Below are positions 23,260 to 60,025 of a stretch of DNA of 64,000 nucleotides, piece by piece (the first letter of the stretch is position 1; each line of letters opens with the position of its first letter). The stretch lies in the IMG/VR virus record IMGVR_UViG_3300042895_002216. One strand, 5' to 3'. A program made the translations under genes and the position numbers. The notes beneath the pieces are model-generated. The model saw only the letters and a list, made by a program, of their open reading frames with translations, made no database searches and had not been told where the DNA came from. The DNA is from a virus (taxonomy: Duplodnaviria; Heunggongvirae; Uroviricota; Caudoviricetes).

Positions 23260-24438
23260 TTATTGTGTATAGCCAGTCCGTAACAGATAAAAGCTAGTAG
23301 TTCCTCCATTAGTTGGTGTTGAAATAATCATTGATTGAACTCCTGGTATACTGGAGCGTAGATCACTTGTCCCGGAATTAATAGTTGTCCATTGAGCTGG
23401 CGTAAATATCCGATACGACGGATATGCATTTATCCAATTTGGAAATCTACCTGAAATTTTACCGAATATGCAATAGGAATCCGTTACATTAAACCGAGTA
23501 TCTTGATTAACGTCCATTGTATAATACAATTTAGAGCTTGGCATCACCGAGTATAATAACATTTGAATAGGGTATTGAGCAGCAGTTGATATTGGATTAC
23601 TAATAGTCAGATTTTCTAATCTAATTTGGAAATCATGGGACGCGTCATCTAAATTAGGTACCATTGAATATAGACCCAACGAATTAGTGTAATATGTTCC
23701 CTTTATGCTGAATGTAGTTTCCGGTGAAGCTGGTGTAAATCTAACTGAATAATTAGTTGCGCTCCATTGAGATGCATTCTTTCCACCGACTGGAACAACC
23801 GTTGACGAAGAAGTTGATATTAGACCGGCGGTCGCGTTATTACTACCACATAAAGGTTTTGAGGCATAATTTATATCTATTAAATTCGACGTTTCATATA
23901 GAATGAACTGAAATGTGTGTAGATTTGTTCTACACCCATAATGCGGAACTGCATTAAAAGAGACAGTCAACGATCTATTGGGCGATGTTCCTGATGTTAC
24001 GTATCTGATGTTAGCTGATCCAGGAAATAAGTCCTCCCAATCCGCTAAAATTGCGTTTAATGGAGACCCTGCATTTGGAATAAAGGCTGCAGTATATCCA
24101 GTTGTTTGGCCCGAGCTAAACCCGATCCATCCATTTGATCCAACGTAAAATTGAGTATACGTATTTCCAAAGTAGGTAAAACTAAATCCTATATTAAATG
24201 GTCCATGTGTAGCATCGTCCGATGATGGAATTACGGTACCGGTTGTATAACTAGGAGAAGTCGGATAAGTAGGAAAAGTTACTTCATATTGAACAATCCT
24301 TTTGCCGTATAGCAAGACTGGTATATTTTGTAAGCCTTGACCATTAGCTCCATAAACATATCCTGAATAAGTAAATGGTTGAGCATACACCGACCCTATA
24401 ATCAATGTAGCAATTAGTGTGATGATAAACTTTCTCAT
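23260..24438 (-). CDS. secreted protein
   Basis: Signal peptide MRKFIITLIATLIIGSVYAQ. 392 aa, rich in T/S/N/Y. Confidence 0.5.
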   Translation of the reverse strand: MRKFIITLIATLIIGSVYAQPFTYSGYVYGANGQGLQNIPVLLYGKRIVQYEVTFPTYPTSPSYTTGTVIPSSDDATHGPFNIGFSFTYFGNTYTQFYVGSNGWIGFSSGQTTGYTAAFIPNAGSPLNAILADWEDLFPGSANIRYVTSGTSPNRSLTVSFNAVPHYGCRTNLHTFQFILYETSNLIDINYASKPLCGSNNATAGLISTSSSTVVPVGGKNASQWSATNYSVRFTPASPETTFSIKGTYYTNSLGLYSMVPNLDDASHDFQIRLENLTISNPISTAAQYPIQMLLYSVMPSSKLYYTMDVNQDTRFNVTDSYCIFGKISGRFPNWINAYPSYRIFTPAQWTTINSGTSDLRSSIPGVQSMIISTPTNGGTTSFYLLRTGYTQ

Positions 24439-26105
24439 AATAGCATGCGAGTTCCCAGCATGATGGTATAGTTTAATGTGGATTCATTAATCGCCCAAGC
24501 TCCACCGGCGTTTATGTTAAGCTTAAATCGTTTAGTTATCCCGATATTAGTTCCCATAATAGGTAAAACCACATGTGGTGATTTTAATAGAACATCATTA
24601 TAGTAACTAACGTATGGGGCATACACGTACAAACATAACATTTTTACTGAAATTCTCTTAGAGATTTTCCAGTCATACATTCCTCCAGCAATAGCAGCAG
24701 TTCCTATAAAAGCAGTCCCTGATACTTGGCCGACTGAACCGGTTAGCATATAAAGAGCTTTTAGGTTTTTCGGCTTATTTAGAGTCCACATTTGACCTAC
24801 TGCTAATGTTCCATAGACAGTCATTTGTCTTTCAAAACCAATAGTAAGCGATGTAGAGATTAAATCTATTCTTCGCTTATTCATGAATGCATAAAAGCCT
24901 GTAATATTTGGACCCTTTATAGCAGTCGTATAGTCTGCACTAATTCCGTGAGATCTCTTTCCGTCCCATCTCATTGATGAGTAACCTCCAGTGACCTTTC
25001 CTCCAACTGTAACATCTGAATTTTTAAAATTGAATCCAACGAAATCGCTGCTTGCTAAAATACTAGGTCGATTCCCATTTTTATTAGAGGCACCGGCTGC
25101 TCCTCCACCTGCGGAAGTTGATTCCTGTACTGAACCAACTGATCCGCCAATTAAGTTAGTTTTTCCACCTGCTTCTGTTTCAGAAGTTGGCGTTGACTGA
25201 TTATTTGAGCCGCTTGTTCCAGAGCCAGCGGTCGTTCCAGACCCGCCTCCATTAACATTGCCGCTATTTGAAGTTGATCCGCTAGCTTGAGATCCGGTAG
25301 TTCCGTTGCCGGTTGTTGATCCGCTTCCGGTAGTTGAGCCGGTCGTTGAACCGCTTCCGGTAGTTGAGCCGGTCGTTGAACCGCTTCCAGTGGTTGATCC
25401 ACCTGCTTGAGACCCAGAGGTTCCATTGCCAGCTTGAGACCCAGCTGTTCCGTTACCGGCAGTTGATCCTGGTTCTCCAGATCCTCCGCTGCTTGTCGAG
25501 CCAGTTTCGTTCGAACCTTGAGTCTGTGAGCCCTGTGTCGTAGAAGATCCACTACTGCTAGTAGAGCTCCCATTGTTACTAGTGGTCCCAGAGTTAGAGC
25601 TACCACCAGTACTTCCATTAGATTGTGCATTTGTTGAAGTACTATTTTCTGCAGGTTTATCCGCCCCGCCTTTATTTTTGGAGTTACCCTTTGACTTGGA
25701 GGAATTTTGTACACTAGAGACAGTTCCGCCAATCATATTACTTGATCCGCCAGCCATATCAGATAGAGCCGATAATGAGTTTACTATTCCTAGAAAACTA
25801 ATTGCTGTATTTTGTGCTATATTAACTGAAGTAGGCATTCCTACTAAACTTGCACATGGGTTGTTATTACCAAAGGAAGAATAAACGCCTTGAGCCCATG
25901 TCTCAAAACCTCCATTGTAAAAATCCGTTGGTTGAAATGTATTTACTTGACCGTAATAGGTTACTGTTATTCCGTTTGATGGAACTTGTATTGTTTTGTT
26001 TATTCCAGTACATGGATCAGTGTAATTGTAGGAAAAGGTTTGAGCCATTCCCAATGACGATACTAAGATCCACGCAATAAGCAGTATAATTTTTTTAACA
26101 TACAT
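24435..26105 (-). CDS. secreted protein with long G/S/T-rich low-complexity linker and C-terminal beta-barrel-like domain
   Basis: Signal peptide ending GMAQ. (GSTTGSGSTTGSTT)n linker encoded by perfect 30-bp tandem DNA repeats at 25321-25380. C-terminal ~200 aa has alternating hydrophobic residues. Confidence 0.5.
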   Translation of the reverse strand: MYVKKIILLIAWILVSSLGMAQTFSYNYTDPCTGINKTIQVPSNGITVTYYGQVNTFQPTDFYNGGFETWAQGVYSSFGNNNPCASLVGMPTSVNIAQNTAISFLGIVNSLSALSDMAGGSSNMIGGTVSSVQNSSKSKGNSKNKGGADKPAENSTSTNAQSNGSTGGSSNSGTTSNNGSSTSSSGSSTTQGSQTQGSNETGSTSSGGSGEPGSTAGNGTAGSQAGNGTSGSQAGGSTTGSGSTTGSTTGSGSTTGSTTGSGSTTGNGTTGSQASGSTSNSGNVNGGGSGTTAGSGTSGSNNQSTPTSETEAGGKTNLIGGSVGSVQESTSAGGGAAGASNKNGNRPSILASSDFVGFNFKNSDVTVGGKVTGGYSSMRWDGKRSHGISADYTTAIKGPNITGFYAFMNKRRIDLISTSLTIGFERQMTVYGTLAVGQMWTLNKPKNLKALYMLTGSVGQVSGTAFIGTAAIAGGMYDWKISKRISVKMLCLYVYAPYVSYYNDVLLKSPHVVLPIMGTNIGITKRFKLNINAGGAWAINESTLNYTIMLGTRMLL

Positions 26106-26119
26106 TTGCGTTTCATATT

Positions 26120-26839
26120 TTAATTTTTGAAGATATTCTTCTTAATCATTCTCACCACTATCCTAGACGATGCTGTCTCTAACGCCTTTTTAGTTGTAAT
26201 ACCAATGGTAGATTGGTTAAATTTAATTTCACTATCGTCCACTCCATCTAAAATAGAAACGGTTTTAATAGTGGAAGCTTCGCCTAATCCTGAACCAACT
26301 AGAACTTCTCCAGTCTCAGCATCAACGAATTTTACCTGTAAACCCAGTCGAGTTGTTTGAGTTGTTTTAGACTCGCCGTTTATTCTAACGACTTCATCTT
26401 CTGATACAGAGAAATCGTAAACTTCAATATAGACAAAGTATTTTGCTAACTTGATTTTACCACGGCCGTCTAGTTTATTCTCAGTGAATCCTTTATCAGA
26501 CGCTTTAAATTGACTAATCATTCTCTCTTTAATTTCAAGTTTGTCTTCAGTAAATACAAAACGGTTTGTGTATTCCAAATATTCCAATACAATATTTGTT
26601 ACACCAAGACCAACCCGTTTATCCTTTAACTCAGGATACATTTCGTAAAGCTCCTCATTAATTCCAATCTTTAATAATTGAATAGGAATTTTAATTGTGT
26701 CAGTATATTCCGGAACAGAGTCAATTGACATCTTCTTTTCAAAAGAAGCTCGGTACTGCTCAGTCTTGATTGAACCAGGCTGAGCAATACATAAGCTTAC
26801 TGAGAAAAGCATTATTAAGATAAGTGCTAATCTCTTCAT
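26120..26839 (-). CDS. lipoprotein
   Basis: MKRLALILIMLFSVSLCIAQ with a lipobox-like SLC. Confidence 0.5.
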   Translation of the reverse strand: MKRLALILIMLFSVSLCIAQPGSIKTEQYRASFEKKMSIDSVPEYTDTIKIPIQLLKIGINEELYEMYPELKDKRVGLGVTNIVLEYLEYTNRFVFTEDKLEIKERMISQFKASDKGFTENKLDGRGKIKLAKYFVYIEVYDFSVSEDEVVRINGESKTTQTTRLGLQVKFVDAETGEVLVGSGLGEASTIKTVSILDGVDDSEIKFNQSTIGITTKKALETASSRIVVRMIKKNIFKN

Positions 26840-27614: not shown

Positions 27615-29537
27615 TTATTTTTTTATGATTTTAGTAGAGTTAATTTGATCAACTGCCTGTAAAGAAGCAACGTATAATCCGCTAGTTAACTGATTAATAT
27701 TGGAAGAGTATACGTATTTTCCAGCTGGCATGTCTTGATCAAGTATAACAAATTGTTCTGATCCGTTTAGGTCAACGATTACTAACTTAACCATTCCGCT
27801 ATTCTTAACTGAGAAGTCAAAGCTTATCTCTCCAGTAGTTGGATTGGGAAATGCGGTAATTTCAAAGTTATCCAATTGACCAGAAGGTCCAGCCATTTTA
27901 GCAACGATTAAGATGCCGTTTGCTGCGGTGATTGATAAATCCCTAGATTGATTGTCTCCTGAGAATTTTCTAGAAGTATACAAAGGCGATGCCTCCCAAT
28001 CAATTTGAGGTTTAAGTGCGATAAATCTCAATTTAAAAACTTCATAATTATCTGGAATCATGTAGCTTTTGTTAGCTGATGGATCGTAACCGGCCCATTC
28101 GATAATTCCGCCAGTTGGATTGAATGAAGACATCCACTGCATTGATTTAGCAGAGTTAGTAATGTCTTTAAATTCCAATAAGGTCTGATCGTATAACATT
28201 GCTAATTGAAGAGACGAAATATCCTTTCCTCCAGTTTTAACAGTAACCGGTATTTCTACTAGATTTCCTGAATTTACAGAAAGATTAGGAAGATTAACTT
28301 CAATTGAGCTCGTTGGAAAATCGTATTCAACTGTCATATCAATTACGTTTTCAGTTTGAGCTGGGGTTCCAGCCGGTGGATTGATCATTACTTCAATTGG
28401 CGTTAAACGAGCCATGTTGTAACCCGTACCGTTTGCATCTCCTGGAACAAGTACGTAATATTGAACTGAATCAGGTTGTCCTGGTAAAATGTCGTAGTAG
28501 AAGTTTGTTACTCCAGCATAAGTTGAAGTATAGTTAGTCGATGGAGATCCTGTGATTGTTGTGTATTGGGCAGCAGTAAAGAACTTAACATCCTCAACGG
28601 CATTAGGCCATTCAGTGAATCTTCCAGCAATTCTACCAAATACTCCGTATGCATCAGTTATTGTTACGTTAGTTGAACCGTTAACATCTGCTGTATAGAA
28701 GTCGAATCCGGAAGGAGTCGCTGACCCTAACACCCATTGATTAATTAATTGAGCATCTGCTGTTGATATAACGTTTCCTACCGTCATCGTATCACCTTTA
28801 ATTGCAAGGCGTACATCATAATAAGTAGTATCAATAATTTCGCTAAATGCAAAATTTCCACTTAGGTCAGTTACGTACGTATCATGAGTTCCCCAAGTAC
28901 CTCCAGCTTTTACCTTTTTCTCAAGAGCTAAAGTTAAGTTCTTTGCTCCAGTTCCAGTAACGTTTGTAAATTTACCATGGAAGTCTAAAGTAGGCTGTTC
29001 CCATACACCGCCGTAGCTATGCTTGCTTAGAGTAGTATCTAAACCTGTCTGAGATGCAGCGAGTGTAGTAAAAGAAGCTGCGCCACTAAACGTAAGAGCA
29101 CTGATTGAGGGTAACGCATAAAACGATGCAGCTGCAACGTGAGTAAAGGTTATTTCAAAGGTTTCACCGTCCGCTAGAGTATAAGTACTGCTGTTTCCAG
29201 TATACACTAATGAAAGGGTTACGTAACCGGTAGCATTACTATCTACTGACTGTAAATATAAGTTAGTAGGCGATCCAACTAGCGCAACTGATGCACTAGC
29301 AAATGCATCCTTATCGTAAAATATTCGAGTTTGAATACCTGTGTATTTTGAGATAGTTGCATTCTTTAGCGTGATTCTGGCTTTGGACTGACCTAGCGTA
29401 CTTGTACCAACTTGATATGTCGTATCAATGATTGTCCAAATTCCTGCGCCTGGGGCAGGAGGTCCACTTTGAGCATAAACTCCAGTAGAGAGTGCGCACG
29501 TGACTAGTGCGAATAGAATAAAGATTATTTTTTTCAT
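27615..29537 (-). CDS. secreted protein with type IX secretion system C-terminal sorting domain
   Basis: Signal peptide MKKIIFILFALVTCALSTGVYAQ. The last ~80 aa (FPNPTTGEISFDFSV..VKLVIVDLNGSEQFVILDQ..LTSGLYVASLQAVDQINSTKIIK) matches the Por secretion tail (T9SS CTD) pattern. Confidence 0.7.
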   Translation of the reverse strand: MKKIIFILFALVTCALSTGVYAQSGPPAPGAGIWTIIDTTYQVGTSTLGQSKARITLKNATISKYTGIQTRIFYDKDAFASASVALVGSPTNLYLQSVDSNATGYVTLSLVYTGNSSTYTLADGETFEITFTHVAAASFYALPSISALTFSGAASFTTLAASQTGLDTTLSKHSYGGVWEQPTLDFHGKFTNVTGTGAKNLTLALEKKVKAGGTWGTHDTYVTDLSGNFAFSEIIDTTYYDVRLAIKGDTMTVGNVISTADAQLINQWVLGSATPSGFDFYTADVNGSTNVTITDAYGVFGRIAGRFTEWPNAVEDVKFFTAAQYTTITGSPSTNYTSTYAGVTNFYYDILPGQPDSVQYYVLVPGDANGTGYNMARLTPIEVMINPPAGTPAQTENVIDMTVEYDFPTSSIEVNLPNLSVNSGNLVEIPVTVKTGGKDISSLQLAMLYDQTLLEFKDITNSAKSMQWMSSFNPTGGIIEWAGYDPSANKSYMIPDNYEVFKLRFIALKPQIDWEASPLYTSRKFSGDNQSRDLSITAANGILIVAKMAGPSGQLDNFEITAFPNPTTGEISFDFSVKNSGMVKLVIVDLNGSEQFVILDQDMPAGKYVYSSNINQLTSGLYVASLQAVDQINSTKIIKK

Positions 29538-35420: not shown

Positions 35421-35984
35421 ATGAAACTTAAAAGATTCACACAATTTGTTAACGAAGCAAAGATTAACGAAGCTCAAATCAAAGATAAAACTATCGTTGC
35501 TAAGCTTGATAGAATTCACGAAATCAAAACTCGATTAAAAGAATTGACAGCTGAAACAAAAGCTATCAATACTGAGCTTGGTGCATTTGATGCAACAATG
35601 AAGCCGATCTTTGATGCAATGAAAGTCCTAAATGATAAGCTTGCAACAACTGAAAAATACGTTATCAAGATTTCAAGATACGGCGGATCTTCTGAAAACC
35701 CATCTTATGCTAAAGCTGTAGAGCAGGCACTAGGGTTAGTCGATGCTGCTGCTCAAGCAATTATCAACGAATGTGTTAGACAAAACACAGCAATATCAAA
35801 CGTAAAACACTCATACGATATTGAAAAACTAGATGAATCTAAATTAACTGATAAAGCTAAAGCGATCGTTGCTAGGTTGTCTGGTAAAATCACAGCAATC
35901 GTTGCCAAGTTAAAGTCTTTCTTTGAGTCTAAATTCTCTAAGATCGATCAAGCAAACGAAAAACTTGCAGCAATGATAAAGTAA
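35421..35984 (+). CDS. leader-family protein
   Basis: MKLKRFTQFVNEAK leader. ATAAATAAA at 35394-35402. Confidence 0.6.
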   Translation: MKLKRFTQFVNEAKINEAQIKDKTIVAKLDRIHEIKTRLKELTAETKAINTELGAFDATMKPIFDAMKVLNDKLATTEKYVIKISRYGGSSENPSYAKAVEQALGLVDAAAQAIINECVRQNTAISNVKHSYDIEKLDESKLTDKAKAIVARLSGKITAIVAKLKSFFESKFSKIDQANEKLAAMIK

Positions 35985-36016
35985 TTTTTAGTAAAGGGAA
36001 ACCTTTTTTAAAAAGT

Positions 36017-36040
36017 TGGTATAATAACTAGATAAATAAC
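36017..36040 (+). promoter_or_regulatory. tandem promoter-like motifs (TTGGTATAATAAC + ATAAATAAC) ahead of the tRNA island
   Basis: Both recurrent motif classes occur back-to-back about 100 nt upstream of a short leader ORF and the first tRNA. Confidence 0.5.
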
Positions 36041-36138
36041 TAGACAAAAAAATTAAACTCGTGCAAATAACTACGAACATATCAAAAAATACTCAAAACT
36101 GGAATCAGTATCCGGCAGGCACAGTTAATGTGATTGCA

Positions 36139-36192
36139 ATGGAGACGATTAAAGATTTTGGGGTATTGCGAGGTTCTAGTGGTATAAGTTAA
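36139..36192 (+). CDS. 17-codon leader ORF upstream of tRNA island (METIKDFGVLRGSSGIS)
   Basis: ATG..TAA ORF between the promoter motifs and the terminator at 36217-36247. Codons 2-9 (GAG ACG ATT AAA GAT TTT GGG GTA) are each decoded by a tRNA in the downstream island. Confidence 0.3.
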   Translation: METIKDFGVLRGSSGIS

Positions 36193-36216
36193 GAAATTAC
36201 ATAACTAACAACAACG

Positions 36217-36247
36217 AACCTCGAACCTAAAAAATTCGAGGTTTTTT
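36217..36247 (+). terminator. intrinsic terminator between leader ORF and tRNA-Phe
   Basis: ACCTCGAA-cctaaaaaa-TTCGAGGT hairpin followed by TTTTTT. Confidence 0.6.
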
Positions 36248-36256
36248 GTTTTAGCA

Positions 36257-36332
36257 TGGTGAGGTAGCTCAGATGGTAGAGCACAGGACTGAAAATCCTG
36301 GTGTCGGCGGTTCGATCCCGCCCCTCACCACC
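36257..36332 (+). tRNA. tRNA-Phe (GAA), CCA encoded
   Basis: Acceptor GGTGAGG/CCTCACC. Anticodon loop CTGAAAA. T-arm GGTTCGATCC. Confidence 0.85.
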
Positions 36333-36411
36333 AACAAAAAAATGAATAAGAATATGAAACGTAAACGCTAAAGGCCCAGTGACTCCCAGAGTTACAGGTC
36401 TAAATACACAG

Positions 36412-36485
36412 GTCTTCGTAGCTCAGTTGGTTAGAGCACCTCACTTTTAATGAGGGAGTCACAGGTTCGAGTCCTGTCGGGGACA
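36412..36485 (+). tRNA. tRNA-Lys (TTT)
   Basis: Anticodon arm CCTCA-CTTTTAA-TGAGG. T-arm AGGTTCGAGTCCT. Confidence 0.8.
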
Positions 36486-36491
36486 CTAAAC

Positions 36492-36568
36492 TGGAATATA
36501 GCTCAATTGGTTAGAGCATTCGCCTGATACGCGAAAGGTTATAGGTTCGATTCCTATTATTCCAACCA
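36492..36568 (+). tRNA. tRNA-Ile (GAT), CCA encoded
   Basis: Anticodon loop CTGATAC. T-arm AGGTTCGATTCCT. Confidence 0.8.
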
Positions 36569-36573
36569 AACAT

Positions 36574-36651
36574 TGCGGGATGCGTAGAAAGCGGTTATCT
36601 CGTCAGTCTCATAAGCTGAAGTTCCCGGTTCGAGTCCGGGTCCCGCAACCA
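36574..36651 (+). tRNA. tRNA-Met (CAT), elongator-type
   Basis: Anticodon arm TCAGT-CTCATAA-GCTGA. T-arm CCGGTTCGAGTCCGG. Confidence 0.75.
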
Positions 36652-36660
36652 AAAGAATAC

Positions 36661-58912: not shown

Positions 58913-58949
58913 ATAAAACCAATTAGAAATATTGTAGTATATTATTAAC

Positions 58950-59021
58950 ATGAAAACATTATCCTTACATTCACTTTGTTTACGTTCGTTGAGATTAAGT
59001 CTCGATGTGTCTAGGCCGTGA
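58950..59021 (+). CDS. 23-codon leader ORF upstream of second tRNA island (MKTLSLHSLCLRSLRLSLDVSRP)
   Basis: Follows the TAGTATATTAT motif at 58935-58945 by about 5 nt. Rich in Leu/Ser/Arg/His/Cys codons that match the downstream Cys, Ser, His, Leu, Leu, Ser, Arg and Arg tRNAs. Ends 26 nt before the terminator. Confidence 0.35.
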   Translation: MKTLSLHSLCLRSLRLSLDVSRP

Positions 59022-59046
59022 TGTAAGATAAGAAAACTTCTACTGA

Positions 59047-59078
59047 AAAGGCTTAGACTAACGTTTAAGCCTTTTTTG
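59047..59078 (+). terminator. intrinsic terminator between leader ORF and tRNA-Cys
   Basis: AAGGCTTA-gactaacgtt-TAAGCCTT followed by TTTTTT. Confidence 0.6.
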
Positions 59079-59083
59079 TTTTT

Positions 59084-59153
59084 GGTCAGTTTGGTCGTGG
59101 AGGCCGTCAGGTCTGCAAAATCTGAGGAGTTGGTTCGATTCCAACATTGACCT
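59084..59153 (+). tRNA. tRNA-Cys (GCA)
   Basis: Anticodon arm CAGGT-CTGCAAA-ATCTG. T-arm GTTGGTTCGATTCCAAC. Confidence 0.75.
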
Positions 59154-59161
59154 CAAAAACT

Positions 59162-59245
59162 GGAAGAGTAATTCAGCTGGCGCTGGACCTAGTCTTGAAA
59201 ACTAGTGGTACCTTCGGGTATGGGGATCGATACCTCACTCTTCCG
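59162..59245 (+). tRNA. tRNA-Ser (TGA), class II, unusual T-loop
   Basis: Acceptor GGAAGAG/CTCTTCC. Anticodon arm CTAGT-CTTGAAA-ACTAG. Variable hairpin TACC-TTCG-GGTA. T-loop ATCGATA is non-canonical. Confidence 0.65.
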
Positions 59246-59260
59246 CTCGTTCTTTTACAT

Positions 59261-59338
59261 GGTAGACGTAGCTCAGTTGGTTAGAGCGCCTGATTGTGGT
59301 TCAGGAGGTCGTCGGTTCGATCCCGATCGTTTACCCCA
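59261..59338 (+). tRNA. tRNA-His (GTG) with encoded G-1 and C73, CCA encoded
   Basis: The extra 5' G pairs opposite discriminator C. Anticodon arm CCTGA-TTGTGGT-TCAGG. Confidence 0.85.
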
Positions 59339-59341
59339 ACT

Positions 59342-59417
59342 GCCTCTGTGGGTAAACTGGTAAAGCCGCTTGACTTAGGATCAAGAGATTTTGTGGGTTC
59401 GAATCCCACCAGAGGTA
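59342..59417 (+). tRNA. tRNA-Leu-like (TAG) with short variable region
   Basis: Anticodon arm CTTGA-CTTAGGA-TCAAG. Discriminator A. Variable region only ~7 nt. Confidence 0.55.
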
Positions 59418-59424
59418 CAAAAAT

Positions 59425-59505
59425 GCTCCCGTGGTGAAACTGGTAAACACGCTCGGCTTAAGATCGAGTGCGCAATGCTTGTGGGTTCGAGTCCCACCGG
59501 GAGTA
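59425..59505 (+). tRNA. tRNA-Leu (TAA), class II
   Basis: Anticodon arm CTCGG-CTTAAGA-TCGAG. 12-nt variable arm. T-arm GTGGGTTCGAGTCCCAC. Confidence 0.75.
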
Positions 59506-59510
59506 CTAAT

Positions 59511-59598
59511 GGAGAGTGAAGCAACAAGGTGTTGTCGCCGCCTGCTAAGCGAGCGGTTCCCGAAAGGGAATGGGGATCGAGACCTCCACTCTCCGCCA
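59511..59598 (+). tRNA. tRNA-Ser-like (GCT), class II, CCA encoded
   Basis: Acceptor GGAGAGT/ACTCTCC. Loop CTGCTAA with a weak anticodon stem. Variable hairpin TTCCC-GAAA-GGGAA. Same unusual T-loop (ATCGAGA) as 59162. Confidence 0.55.
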
Positions 59599-59599
59599 T

Positions 59600-59673
59600 A
59601 GTCCAGTAGCTCAGTGGAATAGAGCAACCGCCTTCTAAGCGGTAGGTCGCAGGTTCGAGTCCTGCCTGGATTA
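59600..59673 (+). tRNA. tRNA-Arg (TCT)
   Basis: Anticodon arm ACCGC-CTTCTAA-GCGGT. T-arm GCAGGTTCGAGTCCTGC. Confidence 0.8.
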
Positions 59674-59697
59674 CAAATTATTTAGTACAATATAGCT

Positions 59698-59928
59698 ATG
59701 GAAGAAATAACAAACGCAGAAAGAGAATTCATGTTCTATAAGATTGGAACAGCTGGATCGTTTCACACAGCCTTGATTCAGACAATTATGAAGGCTGATA
59801 TTCGTAATCAGGCTAAGCTTGCACTAGGTTTTCCCGAAGATGTTCAAGTGGTTCAACGTTTTCAAAACGAAAGTGGCTACTGGGAAGGTCTGCAAGAGCG
59901 CTGGAAAGCTGCACATAACCGAAACTAA
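59698..59928 (+). CDS. hypothetical protein
   Basis: 76-aa ORF between tRNA genes. Confidence 0.4.
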   Translation: MEEITNAEREFMFYKIGTAGSFHTALIQTIMKADIRNQAKLALGFPEDVQVVQRFQNESGYWEGLQERWKAAHNRN

Positions 59929-59937
59929 TTAGTACCT

Positions 59938-60010
59938 GCCCCGGTAGTTCAATGGATCAGAACACACGGCTACGGACCGTGAGATGGGGGTTCGAATCCC
60001 TCCTGGGGTA
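59938..60010 (+). tRNA. tRNA-Arg (ACG)
   Basis: Anticodon arm CACGG-CTACGGA-CCGTG. T-arm GGGGGTTCGAATCCCTC. Confidence 0.8.
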
Positions 60011-60025
60011 CTTAACTTAATCAAC

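Follow-up and report, generated by a model that had tools for sequence, protein, structure and literature searches.

A probable leader-peptide attenuator, matched in codon content to the downstream tRNA genes, ahead of a tRNA island in a tailed-phage genome

The 64,000-nucleotide stretch of DNA analysed here (the window), from the Caudoviricetes virus record IMGVR_UViG_3300042895_002216, carries two islands of tRNA genes, each preceded by a short leader unit. The first unit (positions 36017-36256), with which this report is mainly concerned, lies on the + strand between the end of an upstream gene at 35984 and tRNA island 1. It opens with a promoter-like extended −10 element, TGGTATAAT (36017-36025, + strand), followed by a direct repeat of ATAACTAGA, a tandem arrangement pointed out in an earlier reading made from the letters alone (hereafter the sequence-only reading) and read directly here; transcription of the unit is predicted to start near 36032. 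An open reading frame (ORF) of 43 codons plus TAA, VQITTNISKNTQNWNQYPAGTVNVIAMETIKDFGVLRGSSGIS, runs with a GTG start from 36061 to 36192 (+ strand) and is referred to as leader ORF 1. The unit closes with an intrinsic terminator (36216-36252, + strand), likewise called in the sequence-only reading and read directly here from its arms (36217-36225 and 36235-36243) and T-run. Its 5′ arm, (G)AACCTCGAA (36216-36225), and 3′ arm, TTCGAGGTT (36235-36243), form a 9-bp, GC-containing stem around the 9-nt loop CCTAAAAAA, and the T-run TTTTTTGTTTT ends 5 nt 5′ of tRNA-Phe. Island 1 (36258-39216, + strand), delimited with ARAGORN and Rfam and presumed to be regulated by the unit, holds 18 tRNA genes in the order Phe, Lys, Ile, Met, Trp, Gln, Met, Asp, Glu, Ala, Thr, Gly, Gly, Val, Pro, Asn, Tyr and Met, which together serve 15 of the 20 amino acids (F, K, I, M, W, Q, D, E, A, T, G, V, P, N and Y). 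tRNA-Phe, at 36258, is the first gene, as had been stated, and is followed by 17 further tRNAs rather than the 18 that would have made 19 in all.

The leader peptide had originally been placed in a 17-codon ORF at 36139-36192, encoding METIKDFGVLRGSSGIS. This ORF exists and is the same-frame 3′ part of leader ORF 1, but its start is not conserved, ATG 36139 being ATA in relative L004 and ACG in L016 and L040, and it was rejected as a functional unit in favour of the frame from GTG 36061 to TAA 36192. Relatives were gathered via a neighbouring protein, with exact and degenerate DNA patterns (IMG/VR and JGI metagenomes) and with a protein search using the leader peptide, together with the contigs of the matches. 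They comprise 13 distinct versions of leader 1, from differing samples and with differing upstream genes; a degenerate third-position search in IMG/VR gave the same nine loci, the metagenome scan a further three variants, and the protein search added a diverged clade with an ATG start. The frame is open in 13 of 13 variants, with stops in both other frames. GTG 36061 is invariant, with ATG at that position in the diverged clade (L053, L057 and L059), and in the L009 group an in-frame TAA two codons (6 nt) upstream leaves GTG as the sole canonical start. Indels within the ORF are of 3 or 6 nt only, those in the flanks of 1-2 nt, and L059 has the synonymous codons GCT GGT ACG where all other variants have GCA GGC ACA. 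The ratio of non-synonymous to synonymous divergence (pN/pS) comes to about 0.66 overall, and the close clade is conserved in nucleotide-level blocks; leader 1 therefore looks to be maintained as a frame with constrained composition and RNA pairing, rather than as a folded protein. We infer that leader ORF 1 is translated.

The composition of this frame mirrors the island that follows it. Codons 2-35 encode all 15 island-1 amino-acid types and a single Ser, and the five residues served by island 2 (Ser, Leu, Arg, His and Cys) account for 14% of frame 0 versus 33% of each other frame. Across the 13 variants, the head of the leader, i.e., the codons before a conserved Arg-Gly, retains 14-15 of the 15 types and 1-3 Ser/Leu/Arg/His/Cys residues. 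An uninterrupted frame with all 15 types arose in 29 of 20,000 shuffles, and one with at most a single Ser/Leu/Arg/His/Cys residue in codons 2-35 in none of 20,000; over the whole ORF, 0.6% of 42-residue segments of real proteins contain all 15 types with at least 36 of 42 island-1 residues. Residues with one or two copies per leader (W, Y, P, E, D and F) sit at invariant positions, and those present in several copies (T, I, N, A, V and M) interchange among variants. Relatives show the same partition of amino acids between the two islands. With nearly one tRNA per amino acid, codon-level (wobble) matching to the phage anticodons cannot discriminate. The sequence-only reading had rested its case on codons 2-9 of the shorter ORF, each decoded by a tRNA of the island downstream. 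All eight tRNAs (Glu-TTC, Thr-TGT, Ile-GAT, Lys-TTT, Asp-GTC, Phe-GAA, Gly-TCC and Val-TAC) are present in island 1 according to ARAGORN and Rfam, but as a statistic the match is weak, because the island covers 15 of the 20 amino acids: it was equalled in 829 of 20,000 dinucleotide shuffles and has a probability of 0.777^8, or about 0.13, on real-protein composition. The codon-composition permutation check proposed with it thus gave no significance for the eight-codon match alone, and significance for the extended frame.

The RNA of unit 1 is predicted to adopt two alternative folds. Region 1 (block A, CTCAAAACT..AATC; 36092-36106, + strand, codons 11-16) is the 5′ strand of a conserved hairpin and pairs with 36147-36163 in both the RNAalifold and the minimum free energy (MFE) predictions; within it, CTCAAAACT (36092-36100, codons 11-13) is what TTTTGGG pairs with upstream in the terminated fold, and takes the place of region 1 in the trp scheme. 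Region 1 is invariant in 10 variants save for one A-to-G change that keeps a G-U pair, so that the helix, for want of a compensatory change, is deduced from invariance and energy. Region 2 (36147-36176, + strand) is made up of block B (GATT..AGATTTTGGGG) and CGAGGTTC (36169-36176) and would partner either region 1 or region 3, the terminator 5′ arm. In the terminated fold, the window MFE provides an outer 5′ partner for region 2, ACTACGAAC (36070-36078, + strand), with 36075-36078 paired to 36173-36176; 8-10 of 10 variants retain the GAAC:GTTC part of this outer helix, where one compensatory change occurs, and the ACTA:TAGT part is specific to the window. Another 1:2 pairing of the window MFE, between the start-codon region AACTCGTGC and region 2, was dropped, as it is not kept in the L009 group.

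In the competing fold, CGAGGTTC pairs with GAACCTCG (36216-36223) to form an 8-bp antiterminator of −11.6 kcal/mol, and TTTTGGG (36156-36162) also pairs with the terminator loop, CCTAAAA (36226-36232), for a total of −19.5 kcal/mol that was matched in 4 of 2000 shuffles. The loop pairing accounts for the strong conservation of the terminator loop, in which one variant group differs. The core of this structure, CGAGGTT complementary to AACCTCG, had been noticed in the sequence-only reading one position too far 5′ (36168-36174 rather than 36169-36175), and the pairing itself was borne out, with 1 of 2000 shuffles giving a complementarity to the terminator 5′ arm as good as that of the leader-1 ORF. 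A check for covariation, suggested at the same time, uncovered compensatory changes in CGAGGTT(C):(G)AACCTCG in two lineages. L004 has seven private substitutions in 243 columns, and three of these are C36176T, G36075A and G36216A, the latter two falling on the two alternative partners of nucleotide 36176; in L059, from the other clade, GAGGTTTT faces AAAACCTC, which makes this antiterminator pair a U-A independently of L004. The terminator stem is 100% paired in 10 variants, and the terminator of L006 and L007 shows a compensatory change from CTCGA/TCGAG to CTTGA/TCAAG. The full leader folds as a long hairpin plus terminator at −51.5 kcal/mol (z = −4.7), and with the antiterminator enforced at −50.4 kcal/mol, a cost of only 1.1 kcal/mol; the RNAalifold consensus is the antiterminator. 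When a ribosome footprint is placed anywhere in codons 3-30 and the RNA extends up to the terminator loop, the best fold is the 2:3 antiterminator. Termination at leader 1 would be conditional.

The same design recurs ahead of island 2, with stronger statistics. A −10 element, TATATT (58938-58943, + strand), lies in TAGTATATT, which matches the recurrent promoter motif of the window with one mismatch, and L046 has TATAAT at the same spacing. With 6 nt between the end of the −10 element and the AUG (A58950), the leader-2 mRNA is probably leaderless, its start site being a predicted one. Leader ORF 2 (58950-59021, + strand; 23 codons plus TGA, MKTLSLHSLCLRSLRLSLDVSRP) was compared across six variants. 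Of its 22 residues, 17 are Ser, Leu, Arg, His or Cys (P = 7e-8), a composition that is the maximum of 705 small ORFs in the window and was reached by 0 of 200,000 real-protein segments and 0 of 20,000 shuffles. The earlier claim that leader 2 favours another set of amino acids, in keeping with its different tRNAs, therefore holds (36 island-1-class to 6 island-2-class residues in leader 1, 5 to 17 in leader 2; Fisher P = 1e-6). The window differs from L021, L023 and L046 with pS of 0.36-0.42 and pN of 0.06-0.11 (for L021, seven synonymous and three non-synonymous changes; pS 0.42, pN 0.06); L046 has Cys and Arg positions swapped, and L026 and L049 have the same composition re-ordered. Region 2 of this unit, GTCTAGGCC (59009-59017), adjoins the stop codon exactly as in trp, and the terminator, AAAGGCTTAGAC / TAAC / GTTTAAGCCTTT with a T-run, spans 59047-59082 (+ strand). 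Across six variants, the 1:2, 2:3 and 3:4 helices are 96-100% paired with six compensatory pairs in all: two in the antiterminator (59009-59017 with 59050-59058; 96% paired) and four in the 1:2 helix and terminator (100% paired), the 1:2 hairpin being itself 100% paired with a compensatory pair. Complementarity to the terminator 5′ arm was equalled in 0 of 2000 shuffles, or in 2 of 2000 with the loop included. Island 2 (59084-60011, + strand), delimited with ARAGORN, Rfam and sequence reading, comprises tRNAs for Cys, Ser(TGA), His, Leu, Leu, Arg and Arg. The tRNA-Ser(TGA) gene at 59162-59244 was missed by ARAGORN and labelled tRNA-Sec by Rfam (47.9 bits against a threshold of 47); we assign it to tRNA-Ser(UGA) on the basis of its anticodon loop, CTTGAAA, and of its L021 homologue, which is called tRNA-Ser(tga), and island 2 hence covers Ser too.

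A held-out test was made on LR756502.1 (L061), a 642-kb uncultured phage that has only a tRNA in common with the window at the DNA level, using a 49-kb stretch and array heads preceded by real, non-tRNA spacers. All four such heads are preceded by a short ATG-start ORF and then a hairpin with T-run, and the four ORFs are non-homologous to the leaders of the window. MRTINKHKHFSKLNKWFSNHRFEAKAFC stands before (His-like), Phe, His, Phe, ... Lys x3 (12 of 27 residues F, H or K; P = 1.5e-4), MKTTIKNTSSRSRSSKSGEVRLYS before Arg, Ser, Arg (10 of 23 R or S; P = 5.5e-5), MNRFTNIETIGYTGYEGAYSELLVRPLSML before Glu, Tyr, Glu, Tyr, Glu (6 of 29 E or Y; P = 0.10) and MKNLHNISVGVIAIGAGSVCLWLNYVS before Ile(TAT), three Gly and Ala (8 of 26 I, G or A; P = 0.13); in the last, all three Ile codons are ATA, ahead of a tRNA-Ile(TAT), the one case in which codon-level matching is informative. 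The combined own-array probability of the four units is 2.6e-7. In a 6 × 6 matrix of leaders by arrays, the own array is the row maximum in six of six rows, and the true assignment ranks first of 720 for the six units and first of 24 for the four held-out ones. Each LR756502.1 unit folds as an ORF hairpin plus terminator and, with a stalled ribosome, is predicted to pair the 3′ end of the ORF with the terminator 5′ arm. The recurrence claimed in the sequence-only reading from two occurrences is in this way extended to four more non-homologous units. Elsewhere in the same phage, at 23590-23619, a mini-ORF, MKTKRKYKR, in which four of the eight post-ATG codons are AAA Lys, is followed by an imperfect hairpin without a T-run and lies directly before three tRNA-Lys genes; it may be a further, minimal leader. 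The spacers at 23410-23580, 25635-25798, 25887-26121 and 40896-41153 contain tRNA-like GGTTCGAATCC / GGTTCAATTCC T-arms that are uncalled by ARAGORN and may be non-canonical or interrupted tRNA genes.

Computation shows that the ORF is conserved and matches the island in composition, that a terminator follows it, that the alternative pairings have undergone compensatory changes and that units of non-homologous sequence repeat the design, and we consider it probable that 36017-36256 is a ribosome-mediated (leader-peptide) transcription attenuator before tRNA island 1. The arrangement first put forward, in which a leader ORF, an alternative structure and a terminator control the island, finds support once the ORF is extended upstream in frame. 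We propose the following mechanism. Transcription would start at the TGGTATAAT promoter and a ribosome would translate the 43-codon leader (36061-36192), whose first 35 codons sample each island-1 amino acid with one or a few codons and avoid those of island 2. When charged tRNAs are plentiful, the ribosome would reach codons 36-43 and the stop, and come to rest on region 2 (36147-36176) and region 3 (36216-36234), or between them; the 3:4 terminator would then form and transcription halt before tRNA-Phe. If any sensed tRNA is scarce, a ribosome stalled upstream would mask region 1, leaving region 2 to pair with region 3 and the loop, and the antiterminator so formed would let RNA polymerase enter the tRNA genes. 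Without translation, 1:2 and 3:4 would both form and transcription terminate. The outcome would be negative feedback on tRNA supply, with island 2 under its own unit tuned to Ser, Leu, Arg, His and Cys. The physiological signal would presumably be tRNA shortage, e.g., through host tRNA loss in infection, rather than amino-acid starvation.

Other explanations of the locus have to be weighed against the attenuator. The 43-codon frame might encode a small phage protein that has a function, a promoter and a terminator of its own and merely lies beside the island, the terminator serving to insulate the latter. Its invariant core (SK..QNWNQYPAGT, KDFG and RG) and the synonymous changes in L059 would fit such a protein, gene callers have annotated the frame as a hypothetical protein in public metagenomes, and promoter and terminator persist without the frame in L002, L006 and L007. 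We nevertheless hold this to be unlikely, given the pN/pS of about 0.66 and variable patches that swap residues almost only within the island-1 set. The ORF also contains a duplicate of the terminator 3′ arm, which changes in step with the 5′ arm, and the leader is restricted to sites with a large array downstream; leader 2 re-orders its residues yet keeps its composition, and five other non-homologous ORFs enriched for their own arrays would be left unexplained. Should the leader instead be a non-coding regulatory RNA, whether a riboswitch, a protein-binding or tRNA-binding, T-box-like leader or a small RNA (sRNA) whose 3′ end is the terminator, with the open frame incidental, then the absolutely conserved blocks of the 10-variant clade (36092-36123, 36147-36163 and 36169-36175) and the fold z-score would be expected, and a ligand-stabilised 1:2 hairpin would serve the switch equally. 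Such an RNA would not call for a frame that stays open in 13 variants with in-frame indels only and alternates between GTG and ATG starts, for a frame-specific composition, or for third-position changes in L059 within the 'invariant' core. Neither leader matches a leader, riboswitch or sRNA family in Rfam at the gathering threshold, and permissive thresholds assigned neither to a known family; among the leader families (Thr_leader, Phe_leader, His_leader, Leu_leader and Trp_leader), Thr_leader scored best and reached 25.9 bits against a gathering threshold of 55, in a match that covers mainly the terminator, and Phe_leader 16.1 against 55, and the T-box family (RF00230) gave no match in 35990-36262 and 58915-59090 even at E <= 10. 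The occurrence of one design in unrelated sequences in six units further argues against a single ligand-binding fold, and we regard a non-coding RNA as improbable.

Closer in kind to the proposed attenuator is the idea that translation of the leader acts as a general sensor of translation capacity or coupling, responding to any slowdown or through Rho- or processing-related effects, with the match in composition a by-product. Leader 1 does sample 15 amino acids mostly once, which is near-generic, and simple own-array enrichment for it is not significant (36 of 42, P = 0.14), nor is it individually for the E/Y and I/G/A units of the huge phage. The avoidance of Ser, Leu, Arg, His and Cys in the head, the reciprocal composition of leader 2, the diagonal maximum throughout the 6 × 6 matrix and the three ATA codons that match tRNA-Ile(TAT) all stand against a generic sensor, to which we give little credence. 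Finally, an AT-rich spacer could happen to be open beside an ordinary terminator of the upstream gene: 4.9% of shuffles of a 126-nt segment lack stops, and the eight-codon match has a P of only about 0.04-0.13. Chance of this sort is very improbable, above all because 13 variants conserve the frame, because compensatory changes occur and because the held-out test replicated the finding; the relatives are from distinct samples, with distinct flanks, and are not assembly duplicates.

Several observations weigh against the attenuator itself. Translation, the start site and conditional termination are all inferred, from computation only. The pN/pS of leader 1 is about 0.66, and its variable columns are spread near-evenly over the codon positions (15/16/19). 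The own-array enrichment is non-significant because the array covers 15 amino acids; the significance of leader 1 comes from its coverage of the set and its avoidance of island-2 residues, and its division into head and tail was made after the data had been seen. Covariation statistics for leader 1 as a whole do not exceed controls, which reflects the invariance of most helix positions, and the L009 group uses another register for the outer 1:2 helix. Region 2 includes the Asp, Phe and Gly codons (36154-36162), and a ribosome that stalls on them may prevent antitermination instead of promoting it. In LR756502.1, antiterminator complementarity is not significant for the 5′ arm alone (16-40% of shuffles) and marginal for arm and loop (3-11% of shuffles each). 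Relatives without the leader (L002, L006 and L007) still have a promoter and terminator before their tRNAs, and the terminator therefore also occurs without the attenuator. A promoter-like TGGTATAGT at 36771-36779, between tRNA-Trp and tRNA-Gln of island 1 and with GTGACT 18 nt upstream, could drive the tRNAs distal to Trp without read-through. An attenuator of this kind would also respond to amino-acid starvation, where extra tRNA would not help. Lastly, no Shine-Dalgarno sequence precedes leader ORF 1, whose start is GTG in the clade of the window; a Bacteroidota host, itself deduced indirectly, would explain this absence.

The distribution of the leaders among relatives follows that of the arrays. 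Relatives that lack leader 1 (L002, L006 and L007) have two to five tRNAs at the site, and L006 and L007 have a separate TTGGTATATT promoter 3′ of the terminator, so that tRNA transcription there needs no read-through; loci without island 2 are also without leader 2. In L018 (2607-2633 and 3686-3712) and L019 (2676-2702 and 3087-3113), a terminator hairpin, AACCTTGAACCTAAAAAATTCAAGGTT, occurs as a direct repeat on both flanks of a two-tRNA island, each copy then followed by a TTGGTATA(A/T)T promoter, and L018 has a GIY-YIG-like ORF inserted between tRNA-Met and tRNA-Asp. Suppressor-type tRNAs are found in or near island 1 of other relatives, with anticodon TTA (reading TAA) in L008 (9250-9327) and L055 (3293-3368) and with TCA (reading TGA) in L044 (1996-2068). 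As leader ORF 1 ends in TAA, the leader stop could be sensed or read through in phages with such suppressors. Within the islands of the window, ORFs of 72 and 76 codons lie between tRNA genes (36988-37206 and 59698-59928).

At the promoter position of leader 1, relatives keep GGTATAAT invariant. The motif family (T/A)GGTATAAT / TAGTATAAT has 39 matches in the window versus 19.8 expected, a count reached in 0 of 100 shuffles, and the matches are mostly intergenic and on the + strand, which fits a phage promoter. Just 3′ of the −10 element, alignments of relatives reveal a conserved ATAAATAACTAGAC (36032-36045, + strand), of which TATAAATAAC is invariant in alignments A1 and A2; it may be a further −10 (TATAAA in relatives) or the region where transcription starts. 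In L040, homology starts at ATAAATAACTAGAC and the promoter upstream is replaced; elsewhere in the window, ATAAATAACTAGAC has no repeats beyond chance.

Among GenBank phages, DNA similarity to the window was confined to tRNA matches, without a close cultured relative. A Bacteroidota host is likely, because the - strand at 27615-29537 encodes a 640-amino-acid protein whose domains include a cohesin and, at the C terminus, a type-9-secretion sorting domain (Por_Secre_tail), and because of the topoisomerase homologues of the window, the nearest of which belong to uncultured phages of 460-640 kb. Chryseobacterium phages MA9V-1 and MA9V-2 are among the closest topoisomerase matches from cultured phages. 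A PA14/GLEYA-domain protein is encoded at 40240-41109.

Both units resemble the enterobacterial attenuators (trpL, hisL, leuL, thrL, ilvL and pheL) in having a short leader ORF with regulatory codons, a predicted 1:2 / 2:3 / 3:4 layout with an intrinsic terminator just before the regulated genes and, in our proposal, a signal given by ribosome speed at specific codons and thus by the availability of charged tRNA. They differ in that the targets are tRNA genes (18 in island 1), not biosynthesis or synthetase genes, that leader 1 samples up to 15 amino acids mostly once instead of in runs of one, and that they are phage-borne, in array-specific versions. Multivalent leaders exist among the classical examples, thrL and ilvL each sensing several amino acids. 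The pheM leader of E. coli pheST attenuates a synthetase, that for phenylalanyl-tRNA, which acts on the sensed tRNA; it senses a single amino acid and regulates a synthetase, whereas the targets here are tRNA genes. An attenuator-like leader of the E. coli tRNA-Phe genes was unsupported for pheV of K-12, which has neither a leader ORF nor an attenuator and whose promoter abuts the tRNA. T-box riboswitches, too, lie in a 5′ leader, respond to the state of a specific tRNA and choose between a terminator and an antiterminator. They bind uncharged tRNA directly, without translation, via a specifier loop and the T-box sequence, and control synthetase, biosynthesis and transporter genes, mainly in Firmicutes; here, in contrast, the conserved ORF would be the sensing part. 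The leaderless polycysteine ORFs of mycobacteria, which are reported to be cysteine-responsive attenuators (bioRxiv 10.1101/834739), are akin to unit 2 in that the codon content of a very short 5′ ORF sets downstream expression, and differ in their cysteine-metabolism targets, single amino acid and location on a bacterial chromosome. Leader-peptide attenuators are known to respond to the level of charged tRNA, including tRNA gene dosage (PMC3082878; theory in PMC1183508): in E. coli, losing one of two tRNA-Phe genes de-represses pheA 6-7-fold (PMC3082878). The full-text literature, at incomplete coverage and hence as absence of evidence only, yielded no account of an attenuator ahead of tRNA genes, whether in phages or in other genomes. 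The novelty of the proposed system would lie in trp-type attenuation logic with tRNA genes as its targets.

To our knowledge, the regulation of phage tRNA genes is essentially undescribed. The purpose of these genes is itself debated: they may serve codon compensation, or stand in for host tRNAs that degradation or anticodon-nuclease defences remove (PMC10264068). We lean slightly towards a general picture in which large Bacteroidota phages, comprising a group of about 250 kb that includes the phage of the window and relatives of more than 600 kb, place each tRNA sub-array under its own codon-mirroring attenuator that is switched on when those tRNAs become limiting; the trigger, we speculate, could be host tRNA decay or cleavage by tRNA-targeting defences. 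If this is true, such phages would keep track of how much of each tRNA group is available and replenish it as needed, through a direct, per-array feedback loop in which tRNA genes respond to sensed tRNA, and tRNA depletion would be concretely linked to phage tRNA expression. The leaders would represent natural, compact and codon-specific sensors of tRNA availability, usable as reporters, and textbook trp-type attenuation would extend to the RNA genes of the translation apparatus and to viruses.

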